Source: Escherichia phage BYEP01
Reading direction: 5' to 3' (one strand)
DNA: 64,000 nucleotides
Sequence record: OR757453.1
How positions within the stretch are numbered: position 1 is the first letter of the stretch; each line of letters opens with the position of its first letter. Of this stretch, positions 1 to 58,725 are shown piece by piece. The position numbers and the translations under genes are program-made. The notes beneath the pieces were generated by a model. The model had not been told where the DNA came from. It worked only from the letters and a program-made list of their open reading frames with translations, and searched no databases.

Positions 1-136
1 CATAATCCAAAAATTCATTTTGACCATTAAGCCATTCAATGAGGTTTTGTTTTATTTCAGCAAATGTACCCCCGACGAATATCTCGGGAATAGCATTTGC
101 TGTTCTTGTTAATTGATAATTTACAGGAGTTGTCAT
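1..136 (-). CDS. 6: baseplate wedge subunit gp6, N-terminal fragment (runs off window)
   Basis: Reverse complement of 1-136 translates MTTPVNYQLTRTANAIPEIFVGGTFAEIKQNLIEWLNGQNEFLDY, matching remembered T4 gp6 N-terminus; ATG at 136-134 one nt after stop of upstream ORF. Confidence 0.75.
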   Translation of the reverse strand, partial: MTTPVNYQLTRTANAIPEIFVGGTFAEIKQNLIEWLNGQNEFLDY

Positions 137-137
137 T

Positions 138-2174
138 TTAATTCCTCATAGGAGTTTTTAAGCATGGAATGCATATTGATACTGTTGGAAATGTAATACT
201 TAATCCAAATATTCCAAGCATTTTATTAATCCATTGCACAACCTTACTCAAACATAAAGTCGAAATTTGATTGTATAATGATTTGCATAGATCTTTCATT
301 GACCGAGCGCCATCGGTGAATTCGTGATATAATGATTTTGCTTTAGTAACGCTATTTTCATATACTTTCATTATATCATCGATAGATGCTCCAGCTAAAG
401 ATAATAATGATTCCATTTGTGAAATTAATGGAATTTTTCGAAATTCAGTCAAAGCTAAATCTAATACATCAGACACAGAAATCTGTTTATTTTTTATCAA
501 GTCTTTAATACTGTTATATTTATCCTTTAAAACATTTAAAGCGGATTCAGCTTCTTGTAACGCTTTCTTTTTTGCTATAGTTATTTCATCTTCAACCTTT
601 TCAGCCATTCCTGATAAATATTGTTTAAATTCAATCGTTTGCTTTTTATATTCCTGTGTTTTTAGTTTAATTTCATTCCATACATCCAATGCTTGGGTTT
701 TTAATGATTCTATTTCAGTATAAACTTGTTTAATTTTTTCAGATACGATAGACATAACCATCTGATATACATCAGAAGCAGTAAATCCAGGAAAATTACC
801 TGACATAATCATATCTAATGGAGGAATTTGTTTCATCATTTCCTTCACTAAAGTGATAACAGACCACACTGGATTTGGAATAATTGGTGGCATGCTCCAG
901 ATTTGTGCTAAATCAACACATAATTTTGATAAAGCGACACCGGCCATCATTAATTTTGACCAGGCCCAATCATATAAATCTGTTATTGCATCAACTAAAT
1001 CCCGCGAATACATTTTAACGCGTTCTATAGAATAGTCATATGCAGAACCCATTGCAGAATAAATTGAACTAATAGTATCTTCCAGATTAAAATTTTCAAA
1101 GGTTTCCTTCAATTTTTGAACACCATCTGTTGATGTACATAAATCTTCAATATCAATAGATATGCCCATTATTGTTATTTTAGGTAAAAAACTTTTTAAT
1201 AAATCCCATCCGCCACCGACAATATTTAGAACTTGTGAAACAGAATTTTTAAAAACCATAAAGGCTTGTTGCTGAACATATTGACACATGGCAATTGCCG
1301 AATTTCCAAGCTCTTCCATTGCTACAGATAAATGTGTATATGCCGAATTAAAATATTTTTCAAAATCACTTCCGCTAATTGCCGGCATACCAGGCAACAT
1401 ATCCCAATATAGTTTAAATGAATCTCTTGAGGTGTTCCAAGCCTCAATAATTGCAGATGTTAAGCCATTGTATGGAAATTGGGCAGTAAAATTAACGCAT
1501 GAAATTGCATTAAGTGGAAGCTCTCCAATAATTGATGGAGGTGAATAAGGAATACCGGGAATTGATGTATCTATATTTAAATTTAGTGTTAAACCGACAT
1601 ATGTGCATGGTTTATCTTCATAATATTTTAAATATGCTCTTCGATAATCTCCTAAACCGTTAAAGTTAACATACATTGTATAGTCATTGTTAACACCGAT
1701 CATTGTCCTAGCATCTATTCTAGGACCCGTATGATGCCATGTACCTCCGCGATTTTCAATGCGATACATATCATATTCAATTTCAGTTTTAAAAAATTCA
1801 CGTTTCGATAAATCAGCACCATACCAAGTATTACCTGGAAGTAAAGTTGCACCAATTTGTTCAACGTAATCTTCTAACGCAGTTTGAGTTGGAAAATACA
1901 CGCCGATTTTATGACAAAAAACACCAGTTTGGGTTTCTCCATCAGATGATTCAGTAAATGTATCAGAAGAATGACCAAATGGATTTTCGGTGTAAAGATG
2001 GGTATCTAATTTAATAATTTCAGTGTCCCATTCAACCCCATTATCGGGTTGAATCATTTCTTTATTGGGATTGTATAATTCCCATTTAACTCGTCTATAA
2101 TAACCTTCGGGAATAATTGAACAAGCTGATTGTATGGTATCAACTAATTCATCAACAATTTCGTTATAATTCAT
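138..2174 (-). CDS. large hypothetical protein (678 aa) between gene 5 and gene 6; N-terminal globular part, C-terminal coiled-coil region and hydrophobic Cys-containing tail
   Basis: Uninterrupted 2 kb ORF in AT-rich DNA; ATG at 2174 one nt after gp5 stop (2176-2178); stop 138-140 one nt before gp6 ATG; no recognised motif. Confidence 0.7.
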   Translation of the reverse strand: MNYNEIVDELVDTIQSACSIIPEGYYRRVKWELYNPNKEMIQPDNGVEWDTEIIKLDTHLYTENPFGHSSDTFTESSDGETQTGVFCHKIGVYFPTQTALEDYVEQIGATLLPGNTWYGADLSKREFFKTEIEYDMYRIENRGGTWHHTGPRIDARTMIGVNNDYTMYVNFNGLGDYRRAYLKYYEDKPCTYVGLTLNLNIDTSIPGIPYSPPSIIGELPLNAISCVNFTAQFPYNGLTSAIIEAWNTSRDSFKLYWDMLPGMPAISGSDFEKYFNSAYTHLSVAMEELGNSAIAMCQYVQQQAFMVFKNSVSQVLNIVGGGWDLLKSFLPKITIMGISIDIEDLCTSTDGVQKLKETFENFNLEDTISSIYSAMGSAYDYSIERVKMYSRDLVDAITDLYDWAWSKLMMAGVALSKLCVDLAQIWSMPPIIPNPVWSVITLVKEMMKQIPPLDMIMSGNFPGFTASDVYQMVMSIVSEKIKQVYTEIESLKTQALDVWNEIKLKTQEYKKQTIEFKQYLSGMAEKVEDEITIAKKKALQEAESALNVLKDKYNSIKDLIKNKQISVSDVLDLALTEFRKIPLISQMESLLSLAGASIDDIMKVYENSVTKAKSLYHEFTDGARSMKDLCKSLYNQISTLCLSKVVQWINKMLGIFGLSITFPTVSICIPCLKTPMRN

Positions 2175-2175
2175 A

Positions 2176-3948
2176 TTAACCAACCTGTACGTTTCCACCT
2201 GATACTTTAGAAAGAACCCCGCCATCCATATGAACAGTATTAGATGCACTTAAATTAATATTTGTCGCTGAAAAATTTAAATCTTGCTCAACGTTGACAT
2301 CCATATTTTCAGCATTAACAGTTGCTTTATTTTTAACACTTATGTCTGCGTTTTGGTTAACATTAACAGTCGTGTCTTTTTCAACAGTTATGTATGCTTC
2401 CTGTTCAACAGTTATATCTGCTGTTCCTTGAATAACTACTTTAACATTACCTTTAACTAGGATAGTTCCATTACCTTCAACAGTTTTCGTTTCGTCGCCA
2501 CGCACAAATATTGTATTGCTTCCATCTATTTGGTGGAGACGATTATCCATGTTGTAATAAATTTCTGATCCACCGACGTTAGTCTTTTTATCACCGGCTA
2601 CCAAAAAATTACCATCAGCATTTGTTATATCATACAAATTATCAACAGTTTTTCTTGTTCTTCTTCCTGACGGTGATACTTCCTCATATGTTCCAGTCGG
2701 ATGAACTAATCTGTATCGTTCTTGTCCCGGGGTATCGTCAAATTCCTGAATATGACCGCTTTCAGTTTCCATTGTGTGAACATACGGATATTCACCTTTA
2801 TATGAAGAAACAGGTTCTTTGAATAAAATTCTCGAATCATTCGGAATAGGAGGGTCAGCTGGATCAGAAGACTTTGCTACAGCAGCAGCCATTGCTGACA
2901 AAGACCTAGCTGGTGTTTTAACTTCAATACCGTATGATTCCAAATTCCCTGTAAGAATAATCATGGTAACACGGGATGCACGGCCTTTTGTTTGTTGATA
3001 CCACAATGAATCACGACCAGCTTTATATGCTTTTTCCCAATCTCCGGCTAACATAGCAGTTAACATTGTGTTAAATTTAGCTACACCGCCAACGCCCATC
3101 TGAAATGCCATATTTTCTAATGCCATTTGACGAGAACGATTAACCGCTTGCCAAACTGGGCCAACTTTAGAATGTGATTTAATGTCGCGTTGCATATCAG
3201 CTAAATCACGTTCAAATAAAGTTACCGCTTCTTCCATTGTAATAGAACCTGGATTTCCGGTAATTTCACGACCAACTTGTTTTGATAAAACTTTATTAAT
3301 TTGGGTCATATCACGAACTGGCTGTTTCATGATAAGATGACCAATACCAATTGTCGGATATCCTTCGGTATCCCAATAAACTTTTAGTCTTAATCCTTCG
3401 TCACGGCGAAGCATTTCAGCCATTGACATATTTGGATTATCATCAGTTGGAATCTCTGATAGCGGTCTATCATCGGGATTTATCGCAGTGTCTAGATTAC
3501 TGTCTTGGATAATATTAGAAGACGAATCATATCCTACTTCTCCGCCTTGGTTTAATACGTTAGTATCATTTCCTAGACGTCTAGGATACTGACCAGTTGG
3601 GTCAGAAAATCCTTCAAGTCTATTAGGTTTTTCGCGAACTATTCCGCCATAAGTACCAAGGACAATTCCGTTAGTTTTCCATTTGTCTAAAAAATGACCA
3701 TAAACTCTAGTTCCTTCTACTGGTCCAGTAACGGAACCTCCAATTCCAGACATTGCTGCAGAAGTTATAGGTTGAATAACTGACATCCATGGTAATTTAT
3801 CGGTTGGAATACCCATTACGTCGCCTTGCGCTCTTTGAGGTGGATGCAGACCAACCACACGAACACGAACACGACCTAATTTTAATGGGTCCATTCTATC
3901 TTCAACAACACCAACAAACCAGTTGAGGTTATTACTTATCATTTCCAT
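2176..3948 (-). CDS. 5: baseplate hub subunit and tail lysozyme gp5 (590 aa)
   Basis: Lysozyme-like central domain (EMLRRDEGLRLKVYWDTEGYPTIGIGHL) and C-terminal V-x-G-rich beta-helix repeats; synteny with 53. Confidence 0.92.
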   Translation of the reverse strand: MEMISNNLNWFVGVVEDRMDPLKLGRVRVRVVGLHPPQRAQGDVMGIPTDKLPWMSVIQPITSAAMSGIGGSVTGPVEGTRVYGHFLDKWKTNGIVLGTYGGIVREKPNRLEGFSDPTGQYPRRLGNDTNVLNQGGEVGYDSSSNIIQDSNLDTAINPDDRPLSEIPTDDNPNMSMAEMLRRDEGLRLKVYWDTEGYPTIGIGHLIMKQPVRDMTQINKVLSKQVGREITGNPGSITMEEAVTLFERDLADMQRDIKSHSKVGPVWQAVNRSRQMALENMAFQMGVGGVAKFNTMLTAMLAGDWEKAYKAGRDSLWYQQTKGRASRVTMIILTGNLESYGIEVKTPARSLSAMAAAVAKSSDPADPPIPNDSRILFKEPVSSYKGEYPYVHTMETESGHIQEFDDTPGQERYRLVHPTGTYEEVSPSGRRTRKTVDNLYDITNADGNFLVAGDKKTNVGGSEIYYNMDNRLHQIDGSNTIFVRGDETKTVEGNGTILVKGNVKVVIQGTADITVEQEAYITVEKDTTVNVNQNADISVKNKATVNAENMDVNVEQDLNFSATNINLSASNTVHMDGGVLSKVSGGNVQVG

Positions 3949-4522
3949 AAGATTTCTCCATTATACGTATAAGGTCGTTCATAAATGAATTGATGTCTGA
4001 TTTTGCTATTATTTTTATTTGACGAAGTTTTTCATTTTCAAGAACAGCCGATTCATACGTATCGACCGCAGCAAGTGCTCCTTCATATTGAGGATATTTT
4101 CTAGCTTTATCGCCTTTGTCATACCAAACATATGGATTATCATCGTATGATATTAAATTATAAAATTTTTCACCGTTCTCATTCACATGATATACTATTT
4201 GGTCTCCACCTACGTTTTTGTATTTTTGTATAGATGCTTGATAAGCAGCTTCTTGCGAAGTAATCCATCCATAATACGGATCATAATTATCATTACACAT
4301 CAATAAAACCCAATACAACTGCGGATTTCCATATATAGCATTTGCTAATTCTTCCGGGCGTGGTGAACCTTTAATATAATAAGTACGTAATCGGTATCCC
4401 GCAAGAGCGCGTTTGAAATAGTCTTTATAGTTTCTAAAAATATCTGTCATAGGAATAGTCGGCGCGTTTTTATTCACCGTTTTGGCCGCATATTCAATCG
4501 GATCAAAAAATGTAAAGAGCAT
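3932..4522 (-). CDS. 53: baseplate wedge subunit gp53 (196 aa)
   Basis: Length and sequence match remembered T4 gp53; upstream of gene 5 on same strand. Confidence 0.85.
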   Translation of the reverse strand: MLFTFFDPIEYAAKTVNKNAPTIPMTDIFRNYKDYFKRALAGYRLRTYYIKGSPRPEELANAIYGNPQLYWVLLMCNDNYDPYYGWITSQEAAYQASIQKYKNVGGDQIVYHVNENGEKFYNLISYDDNPYVWYDKGDKARKYPQYEGALAAVDTYESAVLENEKLRQIKIIAKSDINSFMNDLIRIMEKSYGNDK

Positions 4523-4535
4523 GGGCCCTCCTGTT

Positions 4536-4543
4536 TATAAATA
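4536..4543 (+). promoter_or_regulatory. late promoter TATAAATA for gene 4
   Basis: Exact TATAAATA about 27 nt upstream of gene 4 ATG. Confidence 0.6.
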
Positions 4544-4550
4544 TATTATC

Positions 4551-4558
4551 TATTTATA
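4551..4558 (-). promoter_or_regulatory. late promoter TATAAATA (minus strand) for gene 53
   Basis: tatttata on plus strand = TATAAATA on minus, about 30 nt upstream of gene 53 ATG; divergent with gene 4 promoter. Confidence 0.6.
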
Positions 4559-4569
4559 AGGAGAATCCA

Positions 4570-5022
4570 ATGGCATATTCTGGAAAATGGGTTCCTAAAA
4601 ATATATCAAAGTATAGAGGTGACCCTAAAAAAATTACGTATAGATCAAATTGGGAAAAATTCTTTTTTGAATGGTTAGATAAAAATCCAGAAATTATTGC
4701 ATGGGGTAGTGAAACAGCAGTAATTCCTTATTTTTGTAATGCAGAAGGGAAAAAACGTAGATACTTCATGGATATTTGGATGAAAGATTCTTCTGGACAA
4801 GAATTTTTTATTGAAATAAAACCTAAAAAAGAAACACAACCACCAGTTAAACCAGCACATCTAACGACCGCAGCGAAGAAAAGATTTATGAATGAAATTT
4901 ATACATATTCTGTTAATACTGACAAATGGAAAGCAGCGCAATCTTTAGCTGAAAAGCGTGGAATAAAATTTAGAATTCTAACAGAAGATGGATTACGAGC
5001 TCTTGGCTTTAAGGGGGCATAA
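4570..5022 (+). CDS. 4: head completion protein gp4 (150 aa)
   Basis: 150 aa, SD AAGGAG upstream, synteny 53/4/2/3/1. Confidence 0.85.
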
Positions 5023-8027: not shown

Positions 8028-8300
8028 ATGAAAACTTTCAAAGAATTTATCAATGAAGCTGCTTTTAACGAAAAAGTAAAAATTAGCAAAGCTGTCAAGA
8101 CTATGATTGATAACATCAATTACCTATATGGTATTGATTTAACTGACTATGTAACAGTTGGTAACAAACGTAACTATTTCGTGTTTGACATCTCTGAACT
8201 TGACCAGAATCAAATTAACAACATTGAGCGTTTTGCTAATGATAAGGGTCTTCGACACGAGCCTGGTGGCTATAAAAAATACGCAATTTATTTAAAATGA
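8028..8300 (+). CDS. ipI: internal head protein (IPI-like) with capsid targeting sequence
   Basis: N-terminus MKTFKEFINEA resembles T4 CTS MKTYQEFIAE; position after 57B. Confidence 0.7.
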   Translation: MKTFKEFINEAAFNEKVKISKAVKTMIDNINYLYGIDLTDYVTVGNKRNYFVFDISELDQNQINNIERFANDKGLRHEPGGYKKYAIYLK

Positions 8301-8330
8301 GTTTACTTTTAGATAGGGTAGTGATACTAT
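8301..8330 (+). promoter_or_regulatory. early promoter overlapping inverted repeat
   Basis: gtttac..tactat; gatagggta/taccctatc inverted repeat around the -10. Confidence 0.5.
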
Positions 8331-8358
8331 TACCCTATCAACTACTGAGGAGAATAAA

Positions 8359-8541
8359 ATGAAACGTTGTGAATTAATTCGAAATGTTGCTATTGCAATT
8401 TCTGCTTCTGCTTTTAGTTTTTCAATGTTTGTTGGATTTATATGTGGATTATTAACTACAGCAGAAAATGTGTTTTCACTTGTAGTAGCATTTTTAATTG
8501 GTTTAATCGCTATCGTTATGGATAAAATTTCTAAAGGTTAA
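8359..8541 (+). CDS. small hydrophobic membrane protein (60 aa)
   Basis: Strong SD GAGGAG; two predicted transmembrane stretches. Confidence 0.55.
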   Translation: MKRCELIRNVAIAISASAFSFSMFVGFICGLLTTAENVFSLVVAFLIGLIAIVMDKISKG

Positions 8542-11183: not shown

Positions 11184-11312
11184 ATCTAGGCCTTTCTGGA
11201 CCTCTCTAGGCATCATTTAGTTTATACCCTTTATAATATATTATCCTATCCTTTAATTGCCCATCCCTGCCCTAGAATTCCCTAAAACTAACTACTGATA
11301 CAGAAAAACAAC

Positions 11313-11588
11313 TTGGAGAATGAAATGGATAATTACGGCGAACTGTTCAACTTCTTTATGAAATGCGTTTCAGAAGATTTCGGTCGTACAGTGAATGATA
11401 TTAAAGTTATCGGTCCTGACCATCCGATGTTTGAAACTTACGCAGTAATGGGTAATGAAGATGGTCAGTGGTATACTGTAAAGGTTGTGATTAACATGTT
11501 CACAGCAGAAGGTTATGTTAAACTGTCTTCTAAAGTTTACCATGATAACGACGAAATCGCAGAAGAATATTTCAATAATATGAAATAA
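11313..11588 (+). CDS. hypothetical protein (91 aa)
   Basis: ORF with SD GGAGAA. Confidence 0.55.
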   Translation: MENEMDNYGELFNFFMKCVSEDFGRTVNDIKVIGPDHPMFETYAVMGNEDGQWYTVKVVINMFTAEGYVKLSSKVYHDNDEIAEEYFNNMK

Positions 11589-11876
11589 ATGTGTACAAAC
11601 ACCAAGGATGGTGTTATTATAGACTTATCAAAACAAATACAGAAACGGAGAAATAAATGACTACTTTAATTATTTGGTTCGACGAGAATGAAGAAACATA
11701 CTGCGTGAATATTGGTGAAAGCCCAATGCCTGATTTTGAATCTTCAGATAAAAACTCGGTTGTATCTTGGGCTGAAGGCTATAAAGCAGCAAAAGGAGAT
11801 GTTAAAATAGTTTATAAACTCTTTGGAGTATAATACTCCCACGGATTTTAAATCTTAATCAACCTAAGGAAATACT

Positions 11877-15319: not shown

Positions 15320-15344
15320 ATTCACAGTTACTTGGAGGGATAAA

Positions 15345-15761
15345 ATGACTCGTATTAATTTGACTTTAGTATCTGAACTTGCTGATCAACATTTAATCGC
15401 AGAATACCGCGAATTGCCACGCGTTTTTGGTATAGTTCGTAAACATGTGGCAAATGGTAAACGGGTTAAAGATTTTAAAATATCTTCCGAGTTTATTTTA
15501 GGTTCTGGTCATGTTACGTTCTTTTATGATAAGTTAGAATTTTTGCGAAAGCGTCAATCAGACATTATAACGGAATGCTTAAAACGTGGGTTTAGTATAA
15601 AAGATACTGAAGTTCCTGACATCAGCGATATTCCAGCAGAATGGAAAAATGATTATAATCCATGCAAATCAGCTATTAAATTGAGTCAACAACGACTCGA
15701 TGAAAAAATTTTAATGAAGCCACACTGGTATAAATACTACGGTAAAACTATTTACATTTAA
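15345..15761 (+). CDS. denV: endonuclease V, pyrimidine dimer DNA glycosylase (138 aa)
   Basis: [17 protein letters not shown]...WYKYYGK matches remembered T4 endo V; 138 aa. Confidence 0.92.
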
Positions 15762-15772
15762 AGGAAACAAAA

Positions 15773-16087
15773 ATGAAAACATATAAAGAATTTATTGCAG
15801 AATCCGCCAACCAACGCGTTGAAGGTGGTTATATTTGGATTGAACAAGTTGAGCCACCGAGCCGCACTTCTACAGGTAAATGGAAAATTACTGTTGATGG
15901 TCCTGGTGGTAAACGTAGGACTCTTAAAGAAATTAATGGGTACTATGAAGAAGCTCTTTCTGACGCGGGTACTTATATGATGCAAATCATGATTAAAAAC
16001 CCAGAAAATCGTTTTGCGGCTAGAGTTTTCCGCCGTATTGGAAATAAGCTTTATGATGCATATTCTAAAAACTTCCCTAAAGAATAA
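15773..16087 (+). CDS. internal head protein with capsid targeting sequence (IPII/IPIII-like)
   Basis: N-terminus MKTYKEFIAE. Confidence 0.7.
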   Translation: MKTYKEFIAESANQRVEGGYIWIEQVEPPSRTSTGKWKITVDGPGGKRRTLKEINGYYEEALSDAGTYMMQIMIKNPENRFAARVFRRIGNKLYDAYSKNFPKE

Positions 16088-16105
16088 AAATTAAAGGATA
16101 CACAC

Positions 16106-16408
16106 ATGAAAACATGTCAAGAATTTATTACTGAAGCGCGAGTGAGTGCAGGTAAATTAGAAGCCGCTATAAATAAAAAGGCCCATTCATTTCATGATTT
16201 GTCCGATAAAGACCGTAAGAAACTTGTAAGCCTTTATATTGACAAAGAGCGTATTCTCGCTCTTCCTGGTGCTAATGAAGGTAAACAGGCCAAGCCTTTG
16301 AATGCTGTCGAAAAGAAAATTGATAACTTTGCTTCTAAATTCGGTATGTCTATGGATGACCTTCAGCAAGCGGCTATCGAAGCAGCTAAAGTAATTAAAG
16401 GTAAATAA
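16106..16408 (+). CDS. internal head protein with capsid targeting sequence (IPII/IPIII-like)
   Basis: N-terminus MKTCQEFITEA. Confidence 0.7.
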   Translation: MKTCQEFITEARVSAGKLEAAINKKAHSFHDLSDKDRKKLVSLYIDKERILALPGANEGKQAKPLNAVEKKIDNFASKFGMSMDDLQQAAIEAAKVIKGK

Positions 16409-16410
16409 CA

Positions 16411-16440
16411 GTTTACTTTCTCCTAAAATTGTGATAGTAT
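16411..16440 (+). promoter_or_regulatory. early promoter, near-duplicate of denV promoter
   Basis: gtttactttctcctaaaattgtgatagtat vs 15290-15319. Confidence 0.5.
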
Positions 16441-16465
16441 ATTCATAATTACTTGGAGAGGTAAA

Positions 16466-16529
16466 ATGACTCGATGAAAAAATTTTAACGAAGCCACACT
16501 GGTATAAGTATTACGGCAAAAATATTTAC
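16466..16529 (+). pseudogene. denV remnant: start codon + 2 codons fused to last ~55 nt of a second denV copy
   Basis: atgactcg then atgaaaaaattttaacgaagccacactggtataag..., aligning to denV 15345-15352 and 15701-15760; deletion junction at repeat GACTCG; reads M-T-R-stop. Confidence 0.7.
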
Positions 16530-16680
16530 ATTCAAATAACATGGGAACAAGCTGGACCTCATGATTCTGTGAGGGATTCCCGCCAACCTGTAATAAGGTC
16601 GAGCCCAAGTGCGGTAATGGGTAAATACAGAAATGGACGATTCATGCGCCATGGAATGGCCCAAATTTAGAGAGAATAAA

Positions 16681-23731: not shown

Positions 23732-23865
23732 ATCTTGTCAACTGCTAAGGAGAAGAGAATGAAAATTTTGTTTGTTGTGTATGTGATGATTCAATATAAT
23801 TACCCAATGTTTACTTATAATCTGGTGAACAACATTATTGATATTATTCAAAGGAGTATGTAATT

Positions 23866-24423
23866 GTGAGTGAGTCGAAGAGAATCAATATGAAACGATT
23901 AGTATTAGAAGTTAGTTCACTTTTTGGTGAATTGGCTATAGAAAAAGTAAATAATATGTATCGTTTGACGCAAGAAGACGATATGCTATATTTTACGCCT
24001 AGTGAAATCATTCATTTAACCCAAATTGAAAATCCTTATACTGATAAAATTGTAAGCATTAATGATGAGCATAAAATTCATTTTTATTCTTCATGCCCAG
24101 GATTTAATATTGAAAGCGAGTCAATATGCTTATCAGTTATCCATTGGGATAGTTTTATAGATAAGATTAAATATTTTTATTATTCTAATGAAAGAAAACA
24201 TAGTTTAAAATGGCTCAAAAATTGCAATGCTATTATTACTAACGCTTGCAATCAGAATGATGAAACTGCTTTAAATGTATCAAAATGTTATGAAGAAGGA
24301 GATGTCTTAACTATTCGTCAAATTGACGATTTTCGATCACATATTGTCACATTTACCAAAGACGAAGCTATTGCGTTAAAGACTTATCTTGATTCTGTCA
24401 TTCCAACTATGACTTCAAAGTGA
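23866..24423 (+). CDS. hypothetical protein (185 aa), GTG start
   Basis: SD AAGGAG upstream. Confidence 0.5.
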   Translation: MSESKRINMKRLVLEVSSLFGELAIEKVNNMYRLTQEDDMLYFTPSEIIHLTQIENPYTDKIVSINDEHKIHFYSSCPGFNIESESICLSVIHWDSFIDKIKYFYYSNERKHSLKWLKNCNAIITNACNQNDETALNVSKCYEEGDVLTIRQIDDFRSHIVTFTKDEAIALKTYLDSVIPTMTSK

Positions 24424-24497
24424 GGAAATATGTTTATTTCAAGTGGAACAGACATGTGTTATAAATGCAAAGCAAAATTAAATGAGACGAAGAACCA

Positions 24498-25277
24498 ATG
24501 AATTATACTAAAGTATATAATAATTTAATTAAGAAAGGAAAACTCAGAAAATTAGATAAATCTAAATTAAATTTTTATACGGAAAAGCATCATATTATTC
24601 CATCTTGTATTGGTGGTAATGATGATTCTGATAATTTAGTTTTATTAACAGCTAGAGAGCATTTTATAGCCCATTGGCTTTTAGCTAAAATTCATTATAA
24701 TTCGCCTGGATTAATTTATGCATGGTGGTCATTTTATAATTTTGGAGAAGATTCTTTAGGAAGAAATCTCAAATTAACTTCAAGAGGATATCAGTTAGTT
24801 AGAGAAAAATTTTCAAAAATACATTCTAATACAATGAAAGAAATGTGGAAGTCTAATGAATACAGAGAAAAACGTTCGATAACATTAAGTCTTCCTGAAA
24901 TAAGGGCTAAAATTTCAGAATCCCAGTTAGAAGCACAAAACAAACCGGAAGTTAAAGAAAAAATATCTAAAGGGGTGAAAGCTGCTTTTAAACGACCGGG
25001 AGTTAAAGAAAAACACTCTGCTGCAGTCAAAAAATCTTTGAATAATTTTGAAACTAAAAAGAAACAATCAAATTCATCTAAAATTAGACAAAGAACTGGT
25101 AAACATTGGCAAGACTATGACTTACTTTATAAGTTATGGATTAAATTAAATAGACCTAAACGTGGGTCATTCGGAACTTATATAAGTAAATTAGGATATC
25201 CAAAATCTAATTATCATCGATTGATTGTACAATTTAATGAAGATTATGAAAGGTCTAATAATGAAAACTGTAGTTAA
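24498..25277 (+). CDS. HNH homing endonuclease (MobD-like) with NUMOD repeats
   Basis: EKHHIIPSCIGGNDDSDNLVLLTAREHFIAHW; repeated KPEVKEKISKG / RPGVKEKHSAA. Confidence 0.8.
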   Translation: MNYTKVYNNLIKKGKLRKLDKSKLNFYTEKHHIIPSCIGGNDDSDNLVLLTAREHFIAHWLLAKIHYNSPGLIYAWWSFYNFGEDSLGRNLKLTSRGYQLVREKFSKIHSNTMKEMWKSNEYREKRSITLSLPEIRAKISESQLEAQNKPEVKEKISKGVKAAFKRPGVKEKHSAAVKKSLNNFETKKKQSNSSKIRQRTGKHWQDYDLLYKLWIKLNRPKRGSFGTYISKLGYPKSNYHRLIVQFNEDYERSNNENCS

Positions 25278-26271
25278 GTCTTATTTTGGTAGTCATCTTT
25301 ATGGAACTTCTACTCCAGAATCTGATGTAGATTTTAAAGAAATCTTTGTTCCTCCTGCTCGTGATATTCTTATTGGAAATGTTAAAGAGCATATGAGCAA
25401 AAACACTAACAACACATCATCTAAAAACACTAAAGATGATATTGACCATGAACTATACAGTCTTAAGTATTTCTTTAAATTAGCAGCAGATGGTGAAACC
25501 GTAGCATTGGATATGCTCCACACTCCACCTGAACTAGTAGTTAAATCTGATTTGCCTGATGTATGGAAATTTATCCAAGACAATCGTTCACGGTTTTATA
25601 CAACTAGCATGAAAGCCTATTTAGGATATGTCCGCAAGCAAGCTTCTAAATACGGTGTCAAGGGTTCTCGTTTGGCCGCATTGCGTGATGTATTGAAAGT
25701 AGTTAATCAAATCCCTGAGCAATGGGTTGATTACCAAGAAGATGGTTCTATTAAGCAACGTCGCACTAAAGTTGAAGATATTAAGCATCGTCTTCCAGAG
25801 AACGAATTCTGCGAATGGGTATTCCATAATCATGAGAAAACAGGCCCGCAAACGTTTTACACTGTGTTGGGTCGTAAATATCAGACAACGCTTTCTCTTA
25901 TCGAGCTTAAGCAGTCACTGAACAAATTAGATGCTGAATACGGCGAACGCGCTCGTAAGGCTGAAGCGAATGAGGGCATTGACTGGAAAGCTTTGAGCCA
26001 TGCTTGCCGTGGTGGACTCCAACTATTGGAAATTTACAAAACTGGTGACTTAGTCTATCCACTTCAAGACGCTCCATTTATTCTCGACGTGAAGTTGGGT
26101 AAACATCCATTTAAAACTGTTCAAGAGTTTTTGGAAGATGTGGTCGATCAAGTAGAAGCAGCATCCATTGAAGCTTCTAAGAACGGTATGCAGCAAAAAG
26201 TAGACATGGGTTTCTGGGATGACTTCCTTGAGAGGGTTTATCTTGAAAACCACCGAAGTTATTATAAATGA
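25261..26271 (+). CDS. nucleotidyltransferase-fold protein (pol-beta superfamily NTase)
   Basis: N-terminal GSHLYGTSTPESDVDF (GS..x..[DE]x[DE]) NTase signature. Confidence 0.55.
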   Translation: MKTVVKSYFGSHLYGTSTPESDVDFKEIFVPPARDILIGNVKEHMSKNTNNTSSKNTKDDIDHELYSLKYFFKLAADGETVALDMLHTPPELVVKSDLPDVWKFIQDNRSRFYTTSMKAYLGYVRKQASKYGVKGSRLAALRDVLKVVNQIPEQWVDYQEDGSIKQRRTKVEDIKHRLPENEFCEWVFHNHEKTGPQTFYTVLGRKYQTTLSLIELKQSLNKLDAEYGERARKAEANEGIDWKALSHACRGGLQLLEIYKTGDLVYPLQDAPFILDVKLGKHPFKTVQEFLEDVVDQVEAASIEASKNGMQQKVDMGFWDDFLERVYLENHRSYYK

Positions 26272-26275
26272 TAGG

Positions 26276-26300
26276 GAGCCTTCGGGCTCCCTTTTTTATT
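26276..26300 (+). terminator. UUCG-loop terminator hairpin + T run
   Basis: gggagcc-ttcg-ggctccc-tttttt. Confidence 0.65.
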
Positions 26301-26333
26301 TCAAAATTTTTTCACAAAACTTTGGAGAATAAA

Positions 26334-30736: not shown

Positions 30737-31738
30737 ATGACTCGTAACGAATATATCAAATCATTCAATAGTGTTATTGATGATAAAGTTAAACCTAAGT
30801 CTAGTCAGAATAGTGTTCTTTCCATTATCAATCAATGGCTCAATAATATTGATGTAAGCATTGTTTCTTCCGGCAAATTTATCCATGAAGTTCATAAAAT
30901 TTCTAGTCGCGAAGATAAAGATGATATTAAGGAAACCTTTAAAGGTTCTCGTCTTCTTTCATATTTAGTTAATCAGGATATTCTTGGTAAATTTGGGAAA
31001 GAAATTAAACGAACTAAAGATGTAGTAGGATATAATTGGTTCGGTGATGTTAATTCTTATCATCTTAACATTAAAGAAGACCCTGAGAATATTTTTACTC
31101 GTCGTTGGATTAGTAATTTCAGACTTTTCAAAAAGCAAATTCTAAAATCAGCTTCTAAATTATGCTATGGCGGTTATCGTCAAATTCATCCTTGGGCTTC
31201 TGATATGATTATCATAAAAGAATATGAACTTGATAAAAATAAAGCAGCTATTTTTGTGAATTATGGATTTTTTACACCAGAAGCTAATCAAAAGAACATT
31301 AATAAATTTTTCTCAATTGCTAGTGATATAACTTGGCAATTAGAGACTGCATTACTTTGTATGGAAACGGTAGAAAATATTCATACTTATCCTTTTAAAA
31401 ATACGTGCGGTTGGGAAGGATACAAAATTGTAGTTAGTCTTCGTGAAGTAAAATGCGCGTACTCACCGACTAATAAAGAAATTTATCAACAAAAATGTGA
31501 GGAAATTGTGAATACTCCTAAAGAAGAAACTACCCTTGAGGAACTAATGGATAATCTTGATGATTCACCTGAATCGGTAGAAATTCGTCCAGAAGTTATT
31601 GCACTAGAAAAAGCTTATAAAGAAGTTCTAGAAATTTCTAATAAAGCGCAGAAAGAATATGAGAAGGCTAAAAGGATTTGGGAAGAATCTGTTAATCGCC
31701 TTGATCGTTTGGAACAAGCTTTACAGTTAATTAAGTAA
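30737..31738 (+). CDS. hypothetical protein, tandem paralog 3 of 4
   Basis: Start at MTRNEY after promoter, SD GAGGAG. Confidence 0.6.
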   Translation: MTRNEYIKSFNSVIDDKVKPKSSQNSVLSIINQWLNNIDVSIVSSGKFIHEVHKISSREDKDDIKETFKGSRLLSYLVNQDILGKFGKEIKRTKDVVGYNWFGDVNSYHLNIKEDPENIFTRRWISNFRLFKKQILKSASKLCYGGYRQIHPWASDMIIIKEYELDKNKAAIFVNYGFFTPEANQKNINKFFSIASDITWQLETALLCMETVENIHTYPFKNTCGWEGYKIVVSLREVKCAYSPTNKEIYQQKCEEIVNTPKEETTLEELMDNLDDSPESVEIRPEVIALEKAYKEVLEISNKAQKEYEKAKRIWEESVNRLDRLEQALQLIK

Positions 31739-31790
31739 TTTAAAGCCAAGGATGGCTCGGAGTATAAATCATTAACAAAGTGAGAAGAAC

Positions 31791-32720
31791 ATGAAAACTC
31801 GTAAACATTATATTGATTATTTTGACAGTCTTATTACTAAACATCGTAATTATCAGATAGGACACAGGGCAGTAATCAATAATATTCTTCGTGATTTCCT
31901 TCAATATGTTGGCCAGGAAAATCATATCTGTAAAGATACTCAAAACGCTTATTCTCATTCGTTAGGCAATTTGCTTCAATGGTTTAAACGTTCTCGTCTG
32001 TTATCTTCTACTGTAGCTAGTGATAACATTAAAAACTTTATGAAGCCGAGCTTCATTAAATCTGAGACATCTATAACCGATTTGGTTGAATTTACTATTG
32101 TTAACGATGTTAAAAAGACCCATTTGGCTGATTGGTTATCTACCATTCCCGAAACTAAATTTGCTGATAAATTCGCTTGTCAATTCAATGACCAAGTGAA
32201 TATGCTTTTTAAGCATGCTCGTAAACTATTTACCGCGGGCGATGACCGTACAAATACAGTTCATGTTAAGGATTGGGTTATTGCTGATGAAGTAACACAC
32301 AAGCCAGGTGGTTCATCAGTATTAATTAATATCCAGGTTCCTTATTATTACTCACGTAATCTCGGCACCATGACAGCTAGAGAAATTAATAAGCACAACA
32401 AAATTATTCGTTCGTTGTCTTATAAACTCTGCACGATGGTGGAGATGATGGACGTAGTAGAAATGTATGACGAAACCGAAGATAATGGTTCAATGCTGTA
32501 CAGTTCACGCATTCTAATTAAACTGAAGAACCCTAATACATATAAGACAGTTGTAAAAGAGCCTAAAGTAGAAAAGATTGATAACTTGAGCGAAGAACGC
32601 GAATATCTCAATGCTCGTTTGATTGAAGTTGAAGCCCAAATTGCAGAACACACCAAATTGTTAAAAGCTCTTAATGCAAAAGCAAATGGTTTACGTAATG
32701 CTATTGAGGTATTGAAATGA
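31791..32720 (+). CDS. hypothetical protein, tandem paralog 4 of 4
   Basis: 309 aa; C-terminal coiled coil. Confidence 0.6.
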   Translation: MKTRKHYIDYFDSLITKHRNYQIGHRAVINNILRDFLQYVGQENHICKDTQNAYSHSLGNLLQWFKRSRLLSSTVASDNIKNFMKPSFIKSETSITDLVEFTIVNDVKKTHLADWLSTIPETKFADKFACQFNDQVNMLFKHARKLFTAGDDRTNTVHVKDWVIADEVTHKPGGSSVLINIQVPYYYSRNLGTMTAREINKHNKIIRSLSYKLCTMVEMMDVVEMYDETEDNGSMLYSSRILIKLKNPNTYKTVVKEPKVEKIDNLSEEREYLNARLIEVEAQIAEHTKLLKALNAKANGLRNAIEVLK

Positions 32721-34479: not shown

Positions 34480-34527
34480 TACTTGAAAATAATAAATACC
34501 CTTATCTATTTAAGGTAAGGGTTTATT

Positions 34528-35001
34528 ATGTTATTGACTGGCAAATTATATAAAGAAGAAAAACAGAAATTTTATGATGCACAAAATGGTAAATGCTTAA
34601 TTTGCCAACGAGAACTAAATCCTGATGTTCAAGCTAATCACCTTGACCATGACCATGAATTAAATGGACCAAAAGCAGGAAAGGTACGTGGATTGCTCTG
34701 TAATCTCTGTAATGCAGCAGAAGGTCAAATGAAGCATAAATTCAATCGTTCTGGCTTAAAGGGACAAGGTGTTGATTATCTTGAATGGTTAGAAAATTTA
34801 CTTACTTATTTAAAATCCGATTACACCCAAAATAATATTCACCCTAACTTTGTTGGAGATAAATCAAAGGAATTTTCTCGTTTAGGAAAAGAGGAAATGA
34901 TGGCTGAGATGCTTCAAAGAGGATTTGAATATAATGAATCTGACACTAAAACACAATTAATAGCTTCATTTAAGAAGCAGCTTAGAAAGAGTTTAAAATG
35001 A
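34528..35001 (+). CDS. 49: endonuclease VII, Holliday junction resolvase (157 aa)
   Basis: Zn-binding CLICQ...HLDHDH...CNLCN; 157 aa as in T4. Confidence 0.9.
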   Translation: MLLTGKLYKEEKQKFYDAQNGKCLICQRELNPDVQANHLDHDHELNGPKAGKVRGLLCNLCNAAEGQMKHKFNRSGLKGQGVDYLEWLENLLTYLKSDYTQNNIHPNFVGDKSKEFSRLGKEEMMAEMLQRGFEYNESDTKTQLIASFKKQLRKSLK

Positions 35002-35529
35002 CGATTGAAAAAGAAATTGAAGGATTAATTCATAAAACTAATAAAGACCTTTTAAACGAGAATGCTAATAAAGATTCTCGTGTTTTTCCAACTCAACGGG
35101 ACCTTATGGCTGGTATTGTGTCTAAACATATTGCCAAAAATATGGTCCCGTCTTTTATTATGAAAGCGCATGAAAGCGGAATTATTCACGTGCACGATAT
35201 TGATTATTCCCCTGCTCTTCCATTTACTAATTGCTGTTTAGTAGATTTAAAAGGAATGCTTGAGAATGGATTTAAGCTCGGTAATGCACAGATTGAAACT
35301 CCTAAATCAATCGGTGTTGCTACTGCAATTATGGCACAAATTACTGCGCAGGTTGCTTCTCATCAATATGGCGGAACGACTTTTGCGAATGTAGATAAAG
35401 TACTTTCTCCTTATGTTAAACGCACCTATGCAAAACATATTGAGGACGCAGAAAAATGGCAAATCGCTGACGCGTTGAATTATGCCCAATCTAAAACAGA
35501 AAAAGACGTATACGATGCATTCCAAGCTT
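34998..35529 (+). CDS. nrdD: anaerobic ribonucleotide reductase NrdD, exon 1 (3-prime junction approximate)
   Basis: N-terminal region of class III RNR; ORF ends at stop 35541-35543 inside intron-like sequence. Confidence 0.7.
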
Positions 35530-35868
35530 ATGAGTTAATTTAATTCAGGCTCATGTAAAACCGGTCTAAACGGGGAACCTCTCTAGTAGACAATCCCGTG
35601 CTAAATGTTCTTTTGAACTAAATGCCTAACGACTAACCGTGATGAATGTAGCGGTGTAGAATAGAAGCTAATGCTATTCGAAACGGCCGGCATCGAAAGA
35701 TGAAGATATAGTCTAATCTGCATGGCGACATGCAGCAGTCATCTTGTATAAATAAGATTATCTTATGAATACGAGGTGAAACAATGAAATGGATAAAAGA
35801 CGTTGCATATCTATGGACTATCCAAATTTTGTTGTTTCATATAAACGGGCATGAATTTGCGTCTCATG
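35530..35868 (+). mobile_element. group I intron in nrdD without endonuclease ORF (boundaries +/- 20 nt)
   Basis: Same-frame exons separated by stop-rich ~340 nt with group I S-element aagatatagtct, P9 hairpin ctgcatggcgacatgcag and internal TATAAATA. Confidence 0.6.
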
Positions 35869-37160
35869 CTGAATATAATGATGAAGTAAATACACTTTTC
35901 AGCTCTAATGGACAAACGCCTTTTGTAACAATTACGTTTGGTACGGGAACCGACTGGACTGAACGAATGATTCAGAAAGCAATTCTTAAAAACCGCATTA
36001 AAGGCCTTGGTCGTGATGGGATAACTCCTATTTTCCCTAAGCTTGTTATGTTCGTTGAAGAGGGTGTTAATCTTTATAAAGACGATCCGAACTATGATAT
36101 TAAGCAGCTTGCTTTAGAGTGCGCAAGCAAAAGGATGTATCCTGATATTATTTCAGCTAAGAACAATAAAGCTATCACGGGTTCATCTATTCCTGTTTCT
36201 CCAATGGGTTGTCGTAGTTTCTTGGGCGTATGGAAAGATTCCACTGGTAATGAAATTCTTGATGGACGTAATAATCTTGGCGTTGTAACACTGAATCTTC
36301 CTCGTATTGCGTTAGATTCTTATATTGGAACACAGTTCAATGAACAGAAATTTGCCGAATTGTTCAATGAACGAATGGATTTATGTTTTGAAGCTTTGAT
36401 GTGTAGAATTAGTTCCTTAAAAGGAGTTAAAGCGACTGTTGCTCCTATTCTTTATCAAGAAGGTGCATTCGGGGTTCGTCTTAAACCTGATGACGATATA
36501 ATTGAGTTATTTAAAAACGGTAGAAGTTCAGTGTCCCTAGGATACATTGGTATTCACGAATTGAATATTCTTGTCGGTCGTGATATTGGACAAGAAATTT
36601 TAACTAAAATGAATGCTCGTCTTAAGCAGTGGACTGAAAGAACCGGTTTTGCTTTTAGTTTGTATTCTACTCCTGCTGAAAACCTGTGCTATCGCTTCTG
36701 TAAACTTGATACCGAAAAATATGGAAGTGTAAAAGATGTTACCGATAAAGGCTGGTACACTAACAGTTTCCACGTTTCAGTAGAAGAAAATATTACTCCG
36801 TTTGAAAAGATTTCTCGCGAAGCCCCGTATCATTTCATTGCGACAGGTGGTCACATTTCTTATGTTGAACTTCCTGATATGAAAAATAACTTAAAAGGCC
36901 TTGAGGCCATATGGGATTATGCTGCACAACATTTAGATTATTTTGGTGTTAACATGCCGGTAGATAAATGTTTTACATGCGGAAGTACCCATGAAATGAC
37001 TCCTACTGAAAACGGATTTGTTTGTTCTATTTGTGGAGAAACTGATCCTAAAAAGATGAACACAATAAGAAGAACATGCGGATATCTTGGAACTCCTAGC
37101 GTTGTTCCATGGAATTTAGGTAAAATGAAAGAAATGGTAAAACGAGTAAAACATGCATAG
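35869..37160 (+). CDS. nrdD: anaerobic ribonucleotide reductase NrdD, exon 2 (5-prime junction approximate)
   Basis: NTLFSSNGQTPF aligns to remembered E. coli NrdD NSMHSRGGQVPF; C-terminal glycyl radical region and Zn site CFTCG...CSICG; exon1+exon2 about 600 aa. Confidence 0.7.
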
Positions 37161-37983
37161 GTATTATATAATTTATAAAATAACAAATATAATTAATTCA
37201 AAGGAATATATCGGTGCGCATAGCACCGATAACATAAATGACGGTTATATGGGGTCAGGAACATTGATTCGTGCCGCTTTATTAAAATATGGTAGAAAAA
37301 ATTTTAATAAAGAAATTTTACATGTTTTTGATAATGAAAAACAAATGTATGATAAAGAAGCTGAACTTGTAACCGAAGAGTATTGTCTAAAAGAAAATAC
37401 ATATAATATTAAACCTGGTGGAAAAGGTGGAACTGCCTATGAACAGACACTTGAACATCGCCGCAAAAATAGTTTAGCAAATAAAGGTAAAAAGAGAACA
37501 GAAGAAACTAAAATAGCTATTTCACGTGCTTTAAAGAAATATAAACGTACGCCAGCGCATCAAGCAAATTTAAATAAAGCCGTAAGCATAGCTATGAAGC
37601 GAAAAGATGTTAGAAGTAAATTAGCTGGAGAGCGGTCTGAGAAAGATAAATTATCTATATCAAACGGTGTTAAAAAATATTACAATTCTTTGAGTGAAGA
37701 AGAACGCGAACTTCATCGCAAGCGAATTATTGAAGGTAAAAAGAATTCTCCCATGTCATTGGAATCTAGACAAAAGCTTTCAAAAGCTTTAAAAGGACTT
37801 CAAGTTGGTTCAAAAAATCCAATGTATGGAAAAATTTCTCCAACTAGCAAAACCGTTTCAGTTGACGGTATTAAATATGATTCAATTAAAAAGTGCTCAA
37901 ATGCCATAAAAGTTTCTAGACATCTTATACTAAAACGCTGTAATTCTACTGATGAAGCTTGGAAAAATTGGATATTATTATGA
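37153..37983 (+). CDS. GIY-YIG homing endonuclease (Seg-like, 276 aa)
   Basis: YIIYKITNIINSKEYIGAHS; overlaps nrdD stop by 8 nt and nrdG start by ATGA. Confidence 0.8.
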   Translation: MHRYYIIYKITNIINSKEYIGAHSTDNINDGYMGSGTLIRAALLKYGRKNFNKEILHVFDNEKQMYDKEAELVTEEYCLKENTYNIKPGGKGGTAYEQTLEHRRKNSLANKGKKRTEETKIAISRALKKYKRTPAHQANLNKAVSIAMKRKDVRSKLAGERSEKDKLSISNGVKKYYNSLSEEERELHRKRIIEGKKNSPMSLESRQKLSKALKGLQVGSKNPMYGKISPTSKTVSVDGIKYDSIKKCSNAIKVSRHLILKRCNSTDEAWKNWILL

Positions 37984-56844: not shown

Positions 56845-56921
56845 TGCCTAAATTTATTGTGTTATAATTACCCTATCTTTAACCAGTGAGGAAAATATAA
56901 TGATGCCTATGGAAAAAATGA

Positions 56922-57851
56922 ATGTCTATTGCAGATTTAAAATCCCGTTTGATTAAAGCTTCCACTTCTAAAATGACTGCTGAACTGACTACATCTAAAT
57001 TCTTTAATGAAAAGGATGTAATTCGTACAAAAATCCCAATGCTTAATATCGCTATTTCTGGCGCGATTGATGGTGGTATGCAGTCTGGTTTAACCATTTT
57101 TGCAGGTCCTTCTAAACACTTTAAATCAAATATGTCTTTGACTATGGTTGCGGCGTATTTGAACAAATATCCTGACGCGGTTTGTCTATTTTATGATAGC
57201 GAATTTGGTATTACTCCAGCTTATTTGCGGTCCATGGGAGTTGACCCTGAACGAGTAATTCATACGCCAATTCAGTCAGTTGAACAACTGAAAATTGATA
57301 TGGTGAATCAGCTTGAAGCTATTGAGCGTGGTGAAAAAGTTATTGTATTCATCGACTCAATCGGTAATATGGCTTCTAAGAAAGAAACGGAAGATGCCTT
57401 GAATGAAAAATCTGTGGCAGATATGACTCGTGCTAAATCACTGAAGTCATTATTCCGTATTGTTACTCCTTATTTTAGCATTAAAAATATTCCATGTGTT
57501 GCGGTTAACCATACAATTGAAACAATTGAAATGTTTAGTAAAACCGTGATGACAGGTGGTTGTGTTATTGCTGGTACTAAAATCCAGATGTCCGATGGTT
57601 CTACTAAAGCAGTTGAAGATATTCGTCCAGGTGAGCGTGTTAAAACCATGGTCGGTGATAATGAAGTAACTTATGTTTGGGACCCCGAAACTCTGGCTGA
57701 AGGTACTCCTGAATGTTTCGAAATTGAATTCGAAGACGGTTATAAAGTAACTACTTCAGATACTCACAAGTTCCTGGTAATGGTTAAAGACATTCCAACT
57801 TGGGTTGAAGCTAAAGATTTAGTAGCTGGAATGGATTGTGTTGTAAGGTAA
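56922..57851 (+). CDS. uvsX: UvsX recombinase N-terminal extein (213 aa) fused to N-terminal split-intein half (96 aa)
   Basis: RecA-like sequence to MFSKTVMTGG, then Cys-initiated Hint block (CVIAGTKIQMSDGS...TTSDTHKFLV) ending in stop. Confidence 0.85.
   Translation: MSIADLKSRLIKASTSKMTAELTTSKFFNEKDVIRTKIPMLNIAISGAIDGGMQSGLTIFAGPSKHFKSNMSLTMVAAYLNKYPDAVCLFYDSEFGITPAYLRSMGVDPERVIHTPIQSVEQLKIDMVNQLEAIERGEKVIVFIDSIGNMASKKETEDALNEKSVADMTRAKSLKSLFRIVTPYFSIKNIPCVAVNHTIETIEMFSKTVMTGGCVIAGTKIQMSDGSTKAVEDIRPGERVKTMVGDNEVTYVWDPETLAEGTPECFEIEFEDGYKVTTSDTHKFLVMVKDIPTWVEAKDLVAGMDCVVR
57561..57848 (+). mobile_element. split intein, N-terminal half (IntN)
   Basis: Starts with Cys at extein junction; Hint blocks A/B. 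Confidence 0.7.
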
Positions 57852-57855
57852 TAAA

Positions 57856-57896
57856 TATGGGTACCGGACTAATGTATATTTTTGAGGTACCCATAT
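57856..57896 (+). promoter_or_regulatory. 11-bp perfect inverted repeat sequestering SD and start codon of endonuclease gene
   Basis: atatgggtacc ... ggtacccatat; ATG 57895 begins inside 3-prime arm; near-consensus late promoter AATAAATA just upstream. Confidence 0.5.
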
Positions 57897-58617: not shown

Positions 58618-58725
58618 GGCATTCGAAGATATGGTAAAAGAATTTGGAATGAACATGACAATCAAGATTATGCTTTCATGAAATATGTATATTGAAACTA
58701 GCTACTACGAAACACAAGGTAAAGT

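Follow-up and report, generated by a model that had tools for sequence, protein, structure and literature searches.

The slot between genes 5 and 6 of T4-type phages encodes the tip of the tail spike. In phage ime09 it is about 0.83 kb long and contains gene 5.1 (178 aa) and gene 5.4 (97 aa), the latter encoding a PAAR protein, and it was only recently, on hosts with deep-rough LPS, that the importance of gp5.4 was shown for T4. In Escherichia phage BYEP01, the same slot is filled by a single open reading frame (ORF) for a 678-aa protein, located at 138..2174 on the minus strand of the window, by which we mean the whole 64,000-nucleotide stretch of sequence record OR757453.1 that was analysed. 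This arrangement raises the question of what the ORF encodes, how it came to stand downstream of a T4-type spike gene, and whether its product takes the place of the PAAR tip.

A conserved gene between genes 5 and 6

The ORF starts with an ATG at 2174..2172 and ends with a TAA at 140..138, giving a product of 678 aa and ~76.9 kDa. The open-reading-frame listing gives 703 aa, counted from an upstream GTG within the gp5 gene; the ATG (MNY...) is the start that is kept among homologs. The ORF is preceded by gene 5 (2176..3948, minus strand; gp5 of 590 aa) and followed by the baseplate wedge gene 6, the start of which lies at 1..136 on the minus strand, with its ATG at 136, and which continues beyond the window. 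An earlier note on this DNA had named these two neighbours and had placed one nucleotide between each of them and the ORF. Both statements were borne out. The gp5 sequence matched the Pfam domains Gp5_OB, Phage_lysozyme and Gp5_C, and gp6, together with gp53, is annotated as a baseplate wedge subunit in the 99.1%-identical phage PD112. On the minus strand, the gp5/ORF junction reads ...GGNVQVG TAA T ATG AAT... and the ORF/gp6 junction ...TPMRN TAA A ATG ACA..., with a spacer of 1 nt in each case, and the Shine-Dalgarno sequence of gp6 (GAGGAA) is embedded within the final codons of the ORF. The first gene of the operon is the baseplate wedge gene 53 (3932..4522, minus strand). Upstream of it, at 4551..4558 on the minus strand, the T4 late-promoter consensus TATAAATA (PMC1524935) was found, and this site is likely the promoter for 53-5-ORF-6. 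Since this late promoter precedes gene 53 and no further consensus was found between the 4551..4558 site and the ORF, the ORF is most simply regarded, from what is known of T4 promoters, as part of a late 53-5-ORF-6 transcript.

The earlier note had described the ORF as unrecognised, a description that did not survive database searches. The ORF matched phrog_5296, a family to which no function is assigned in the catalogue, from end to end (E = 0, profile positions 1-684 of 685), and it aligned to RB43ORF205w (AAX78727.1), which also lies between gp5 and gp6, with 41.9% identity over residues 1-673 (99% coverage, E 1e-157 by tblastn). Homologs at this position were present in 215 phage records (tblastn), and at least 80% of the length was covered in 213 of them. 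The hosts named in these records were Klebsiella (113), Escherichia (26), Enterobacter (20) and Cronobacter (18), and also Citrobacter, Proteus and others. In a collection of 5.8 billion proteins, the family had 65 cluster representatives that measured 664-764 aa, and a further two that were shorter. The gp5 stop codon was found 0-9 nt ahead of the orf205w homolog in every locus read. The closest relatives of the ORF were those of the Gaprivervirus phages SP18, WG01 and LHE83 (72%), not that of RB43; the SP18 locus has the same gene layout, its homolog is 72% identical to the ORF, and its annotation already cites the similarity to RB43ORF205w. The same gp5-homolog-gp6 layout was seen in KP15. 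GenBank labels on the homologs range from 'hypothetical' to 'tape measure' or 'tail length tape measure' and 'baseplate hub'. The near-full-length matches, the 65 cluster representatives and the single coherent predicted fold described below mean that the ORF is clearly a real gene. A fusion artefact of several small genes, which the earlier note had listed among the findings that would count against it, is excluded by the length conservation and the single-fold model.

By its sequence, then, the ORF is a member of the RB43 orf205w family, a kind of protein known from a 2025 preprint. According to its authors, RB43, RB16 and Lw1 are devoid of gene 5.4, and orf205w occupies the 5.1-5.4 locus (Mattenberger et al. 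2025 preprint, PMC12407873). The RB43 protein is about 690 residues long; its residues 1-220 form an α/β region, the remainder is helical, and the final 60 residues of gp5 are only 15% identical between RB43 and T4 (PMC12407873). In cryo-EM of the RB43 baseplate, at 17.7 Å with C6 symmetry imposed, a larger object on the tip of the spike was seen as additional density. An AlphaFold model of orf205w, itself of low confidence, could be fitted into it, and the tip was described as 'possibly encoded by' orf205w, while co-expression of orf205w with a gp5 β-helix fragment failed (PMC12407873). Clear homologs at this position therefore exist, which goes part of the way towards what the earlier note had named as a refutation of its view, but their function is proposed rather than demonstrated. 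Our literature search for virion proteomics over KP15/KP27, vB_EcRAM-01, RB43, Slopekvirus and Pseudotevenvirus returned nothing usable on the orf205w family. The sole good virion MS set was that of the ValerieMcCarty phages, in which a pair of small genes separates gp5 from gp6, apparently as in the T4 type.

Exchange of the gp5 end together with the downstream gene

The Tequatrovirus Escherichia phage vB_vPM_PD112 was 99.1% identical to the window over positions 1-4000. Only 9 of the 528 phage records matching this region carried the whole stretch, and these represented six distinct phages (PD112, sutha, JEP6, SG1, F26 and G8); among the matches listed, all other records covered 43% of it and had the T4 arrangement with gene 5.1 and gene 5.4 (PAAR). 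In the comparison with ime09, blastn aligned only positions 1-146 and 2442-4200 of the window, with 97.6% DNA identity over 2442..4200. Because the T4-type DNA homology is limited to these two parts, the replaced segment was placed at ~147..2441. The protein comparison led to the same boundary. Residues 1-502 of gp5 (2442..3948, minus strand), comprising the OB domain, the lysozyme and the proximal β-helix, are T4-type by ime09 identity and Pfam, and up to ~residue 502 the identity to ime09 gp5 was 100% per 30-residue window (96% in one). Past this point, it fell to 10-50% relative to T4-type gp5. The exchanged β-helix end, residues 503-590 (2176..2441, minus strand; ...SKVSGGNVQVG), was instead ~90% identical over these last ~88 residues to the gp5 tip of Gaprivervirus SP18, whose N-terminal 500 gp5 residues are only 50-90% identical to those of the window. 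The cassette, made up of the gp5 β-helix tip and the putative tip-protein gene, spans from codon 503 of gene 5 through the ORF stop codon (~2.3 kb) and, as judged from these alignments, replaces the T4-type gp5 tip along with genes 5.1 and 5.4. Its nearest relatives were only about 73% identical in DNA, so the donor was judged to be absent from the databases searched. The nine Tequatrovirus copies of the ORF shared at least 99% mutual protein identity, which suggests one acquisition.

A second exchange, independent of this one, was found in Gaprivervirus. The gp5 of SP18 (orf205w) and that of Escherichia phage vB_EcoM_VR20, a Gaprivervirus like SP18 that carries a PAAR gene, were ~100% identical to ~residue 500 and 6-36% identical thereafter. 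Both junctions lie just past the conserved β-helix repeat TVEGNGT(I/L)(L/R)VKGNV (VEGNGTxxVKGNV). As SP18/VR20 and window/T4-type switch at the same point, the two genera are polymorphic for the same two-part module, and the alignments show that, in Tequatrovirus and Gaprivervirus at least, the final ~88 gp5 residues have been exchanged as one cassette with the gene downstream.

The association between the two parts was examined in 12 orf205w-type and 38 gp5.4-type IMG/VR loci, plus RB43, SP18, KP15 and the window, some of these added loci being duplicates of IMG/VR entries. In all orf205w-type loci (16/16) gp5 ended in ...K[IV][TS]G[GA]xVQVG, and in all gp5.4 (PAAR)-type loci (38/38) it ended in ...GQYT[IV]DGSR[IV]D[IVL]G, with three of the 38 differing ahead of DGSR and three having one extra residue. 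The type of gp5 end tracked the downstream gene in 54/54 loci, which are not phylogenetically independent; about two or three independent exchange events probably lie behind this number, and the within-genus chimeras are the informative ones. Both locus classes included gp5 proteins 98-99% identical to that of the window over the first 500 residues. The gp5 ends of RB43 (...TKITGGTVQVG) and of the window (...SKVSGGNVQVG) belong to the same platform type. A metagenomic homolog that is ~30% identical (P0065) starts 6 nt past a β-helix gene ending in ...FTGGTVSVG and is followed downstream by gp25-like, gp6-like and gp7-like genes.

The earlier note had advised checking whether a PAAR-like tip gene exists elsewhere in the genome. 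None was found in the window (64 kb) or in PD112, a 99%-identical phage whose complete genome was searched: homologs of gp5.4 and gp5.1 were absent from both (best tblastn E 0.92), and phmmer searches with gp5.4 and gp5.1 against all six-frame ORFs of the window and the PD112 genome gave E values of at least 2.5. The ORF itself matched no PAAR model in Pfam to E 1 or in NCBIfam to E 0.1; T4-type gp5.4 matched the PAAR model NF033420 (NCBIfam) at 1.8e-11. Sequence comparison thus shows that the ORF is a conserved gene of the late operon, that it stands in place of the PAAR gene and that one type of gp5 β-helix end always accompanies it.

Predicted structure and candidate role at the spike tip

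The ORF protein was modelled by AlphaFold2 from a 59-sequence alignment, and a single coherent fold was obtained with a mean pLDDT of 87.2 and a pTM of 0.79. The small conical β-structure of PAAR tips is not found in this model. The candidate spike-binding module is an α/β domain at the N-terminus that extends to about residue 200 (1575..2174, minus strand). Invariant residues of the family cluster in it (WYGADLSK, ENxGG, Cys18 and Cys190), and modelled alone it reached a pLDDT of 96-98. An exhaustive phmmer search with this domain against 1.84 billion representatives matched 10 proteins, and since all of them fall within the orf205w family, no other architecture has taken up the domain; its predicted fold is without a known relative. 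The β/linker segment, residues 201-284 (1323..1574, minus strand), was well ordered only in the full-length model; when the C-terminal part was left out, its pLDDT fell to 52-75 and strand 224-232 was lost. The predicted helical domain, residues 285-655 (210..1322, minus strand), contains helices at 389-426, 466-520, 529-566 and 622-655. Its long antiparallel hairpin at 466-566 (55 + 38 residues) is the least conserved region, and conservation is highest in helix 622-655 and in region 285-465. Helix 408-426 is moderately hydrophobic, with the second hydropathy peak (1.41), and is followed by a conserved Pro-rich loop, SMPPxxPNP. The hydrophobic C-terminal tail, residues 656-678 (141..209, minus strand; FGLSITFPTVSICIPCL...), is modelled with a β-strand at 664-673 and contains the cysteines C668 and C671 of the C-terminal hydrophobic region; the hydropathy peak of the whole protein covers residues 651-673 (KD19 1.76, family mean 1.77). 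Self-comparison of the ORF sequence detected no pseudo-threefold repeat. The anatomy proposed in the earlier note thus stood as regards the globular N-terminus, the long helical region and the hydrophobic Cys-containing C-terminus, but the coiled-coil segment is modelled as a helical hairpin and is not a demonstrated coiled coil.

Searches for structural relatives gave generic matches. A PDB sequence search recovered no solved structure with a homolog of the ORF. Pfam, NCBIfam and PDB were queried with the ORF, four homologs, RB43 orf205w and the family profile, and the matches to CCDC22, TRIM_CC, Baculo_PEP_C, apolipoprotein, ZorA, Hbl-B and haemagglutinin HA2 were rejected as compositional coiled-coil noise. 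Fold matches included long-helical-hairpin proteins that are membrane-active or span the periplasm, namely the T3SS translocators IpaB/SipB, the α-pore-forming toxins YaxB, AhlC and Hbl-B, and HlyD-type adaptors, all with high rmsd and ranking among prefoldin and designed bundles; what these proteins share with the ORF protein is antiparallel helices, a generic resemblance without sign of common ancestry or pore formation.

Homology and synteny, the cassette exchange, the gp5-end association, the absence of PAAR, the operon position, the confident fold and the RB43 density together argue that the ORF product probably caps the gp5 β-helix end as a non-PAAR spike tip, as proposed for RB43. The suggestion of the earlier note that the ORF is a replacement for the spike-tip module is accordingly the best-supported one, with genes 5.1 and 5.4 replaced, no PAAR gene found and the gp5 end co-exchanged. 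From homology and the shared slot, we annotate the ORF as a putative non-PAAR spike-tip protein of the RB43 orf205w family (phrog_5296).

Co-inheritance with the gp5 tip would be equally expected of a tip-specific assembly factor, that is, of a non-virion chaperone made late for the folding or trimerising of the variant gp5 β-helix end or for hub loading. The empty outcome of the proteomics search and the fact that the preprint authors obtained no complex with the gp5 β fragment (PMC12407873) would also fit such a factor; their co-expression used a T4 gp5β graft, however, which the present data predict to be a non-cognate partner. A chaperone would leave the extra tip density of RB43 to be accounted for, with no other candidate gene filling the 5.4 slot, and a strongly conserved two-domain fold of 77 kDa would be unusual for chaperoning an 88-residue β-helix segment. 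Moreover, gp5β of T4 was expressed by itself (PMC12407873), so that its β-helix needs no such factor to fold. We consider a chaperone role improbable.

We give still less credence, and hold it very unlikely, that the ORF encodes a tape-measure-like or ejection protein that resides inside the tail tube or hub and is released into the envelope. The long helices and hydrophobic C-terminus would suit such a protein, some GenBank homologs are labelled 'tail length tape measure', and four PHROGs of tape measures were weakly matched by residues 245-657 (E 1e-5 to 1e-4); yet such matches are at noise level for helical proteins, Pfam gives coiled-coil noise only, and a gp29 is already there. Nor would such a protein account for the linkage to the end of gp5 that faces outward. 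Neither significant profile similarity nor the position of sole length-determining tail protein, which together define a tape measure, was found for the ORF. That same linkage, strict as it is to the gp5 tip type, is also unexplained if the ORF encodes a late tail-anchored host-membrane protein, for example in exclusion or lysis timing, that is merely carried in the structural operon. The hydrophobic segment at the C-terminus, which is conserved and comes close to the threshold for a transmembrane segment (KD19 1.76), and the lack of an N-terminal signal peptide point in this direction, but the segment is modelled as a β-strand packed in the fold and not as a free helix, and the position and translational coupling within 53-5-6 match those of a structural gene, which leaves this explanation hardly any probability.

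For the spike-tip protein, a course of events can be proposed. The ORF protein would most likely cap the blunt end of the gp5 trimer through its N-terminal α/β domain, which is the likely docking module because it is family-specific and highly conserved; the C-terminal strand may also contribute to docking, and gp5 residues 503-590 would provide the platform on which it docks. A helical domain of ~8 nm would project from the spike, and upon sheath contraction the ORF protein would be driven into the outer membrane ahead of the rest of the virion. It would then accompany the spike into the periplasm, which is what was shown for phage P2, where spike and tip are fused (PMC12407873). The helical domain may serve as a spacer or sharpening element, although this is speculative. 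More speculatively, the helical domain and the hydrophobic C-terminal strand could act on or in the membrane or on a periplasmic partner, and such action would help the tube and the tape-measure protein to reach the inner membrane. A stronger form of this idea, which we regard as doubtful, is that the 77-kDa tip is a membrane-active ejection module whose helical domain inserts in the inner membrane or engages a periplasmic or inner-membrane partner. The elements involved would be residues 408-447 with their hydrophobic helix-Pro-loop-helix, the hairpin of ~8 nm and the hydrophobic strand at the C-terminus, and the helical domain would rearrange after the spike has crossed the outer membrane, nucleating a DNA conduit. 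The membrane-active step is the more speculative part, as it is drawn from the generic helical-hairpin similarity and the modest hydropathy of the model. If it were true, the ORF protein would correspond, in a phage, to those T6SS effectors that ride on the spike and contain transmembrane helices, and the PAAR/orf205w exchange would amount to a switch of envelope-penetration strategy affecting host range.

Relation to known spike tips

The ORF resembles RB43 orf205w in its slot, in its α/β-then-helical layout, in the gp5 end ...GGxVQVG and in the lack of gene 5.4. Unlike RB43 orf205w, it is found in a Tequatrovirus in which the remaining listed genes are of the T4 type, and the cassette that brought it in included no more of gp5 than the last ~88 residues. 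The PAAR tips of T4 (gp5.4) and of the T6SS (PDB 4KU0; NF033420) are, like the ORF, encoded downstream of the spike gene, and like the ORF protein they are expected to cap the C-terminal platform of gp5 or VgrG in a manner matched to the β-helix end; PAAR tip and ORF are mutually exclusive. Whereas the T4-type tip is a 97-residue PAAR cone, the tip candidate described here has 678 residues and is mostly helical.

[quoted passage not shown] In contrast to these VgrG/PAAR-effector systems, no PAAR, toxin domain, adaptor or chaperone gene was detected for the ORF, and unlike secreted T6SS effectors its product is a putative phage virion protein.

Newly shown here are a recurrent and precisely bounded exchange of spike end and tip gene within two T-even genera and a perfect association between gp5 end and tip type, to which is added a confident model with an N-terminal fold that lacks known relatives. 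Near-isogenic T4-like phages differ by a ~2.3-kb cassette, with a PAAR tip in one form and a putative large helical tip in the other. The cassette exchange provides genetic evidence for a physical pairing of the ORF protein with the gp5 tip and marks the last ~88 residues of gp5 as a defined specificity determinant. PD112, G8 and SG1 with their T4-type relatives, and SP18 with VR20, constitute a ready experimental system in which the role of the large tip in envelope penetration and host range can be addressed. The orf205w family is, moreover, common among the Klebsiella, Enterobacter and Cronobacter phages that are under development for therapy.

Tip exchange in gp5 and mosaicism of the window

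Both types of spike tip were found within the single genus Gaprivervirus, in which phage SP18 (locus L004) carried the orf205w-type tip and vB_EcoM_VR20 (locus L029) the PAAR-type tip. The two gp5 proteins, which differ in type over codons ~500-595, shared ~100% identity as far as the β-helix repeat at which the chimeric gp5 of the window switches type. This repeat, 'VEGNGTxxVKGNV', may be a recombination hotspot. The window and its Tequatrovirus relative PD112 were collinear, and identity was 92.9-98.2% within the aligned blocks. Stretches between these blocks found no megablast-level counterpart (window 8048-8534, 11185-11825, 15332-16531, 23864-26322, 30756-31797, 34480-37869 and 56846-58840), indicating more mosaic replacements or indels elsewhere in the window.

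Late-promoter consensus sites upstream of gene 53

The interval between gene 4 and gene 53 contained two divergent matches to the T4 late-promoter consensus TATAAATA within window 4536-4558, one on the plus strand (4536-4543) and one on the minus strand (4551-4558). Since the motif was not enriched across the window (10 sites against a chance mean of 10.8), the meaning of these two sites rests on their position only.

Variation among tip-protein homologs

Homologs of the tip protein were labelled differently in GenBank (for example, PQ657829, PQ657830, PP889503, MZ612130 and PP337149): the name 'tail length tape measure protein' was in use alongside 'baseplate hub structural protein'. Both labels are probably incorrect and seem to have originated in weak profile matches and spread from there. 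The homolog in the Slopekvirus Escherichia phage phT4A (locus L060, 2847-4473; NC_055712, a record marked 'partial genome') comprised only 485 aa, which aligned with residues 190-673 of the tip-protein ORF. In phT4A the ORF stop lay ~1.63 kb beyond the gp5 stop, versus ~2.07 kb in relatives, and thus ~440 nt coding for the N-terminal domain were absent. This loss is either an error of assembly or a deletion of the domain that left the phage viable. The N-terminal half alone was covered by a 340-aa entry in BFVD. In a distant metagenomic relative (locus L061, contig ERZ23488527 scaffold_330, 237-4970), the homolog was 764 aa long with ~30% identity, and a gp25-like gene was located between it and gp6, indicating that the order of genes surrounding the module is variable outside the Enterobacteriaceae phages.
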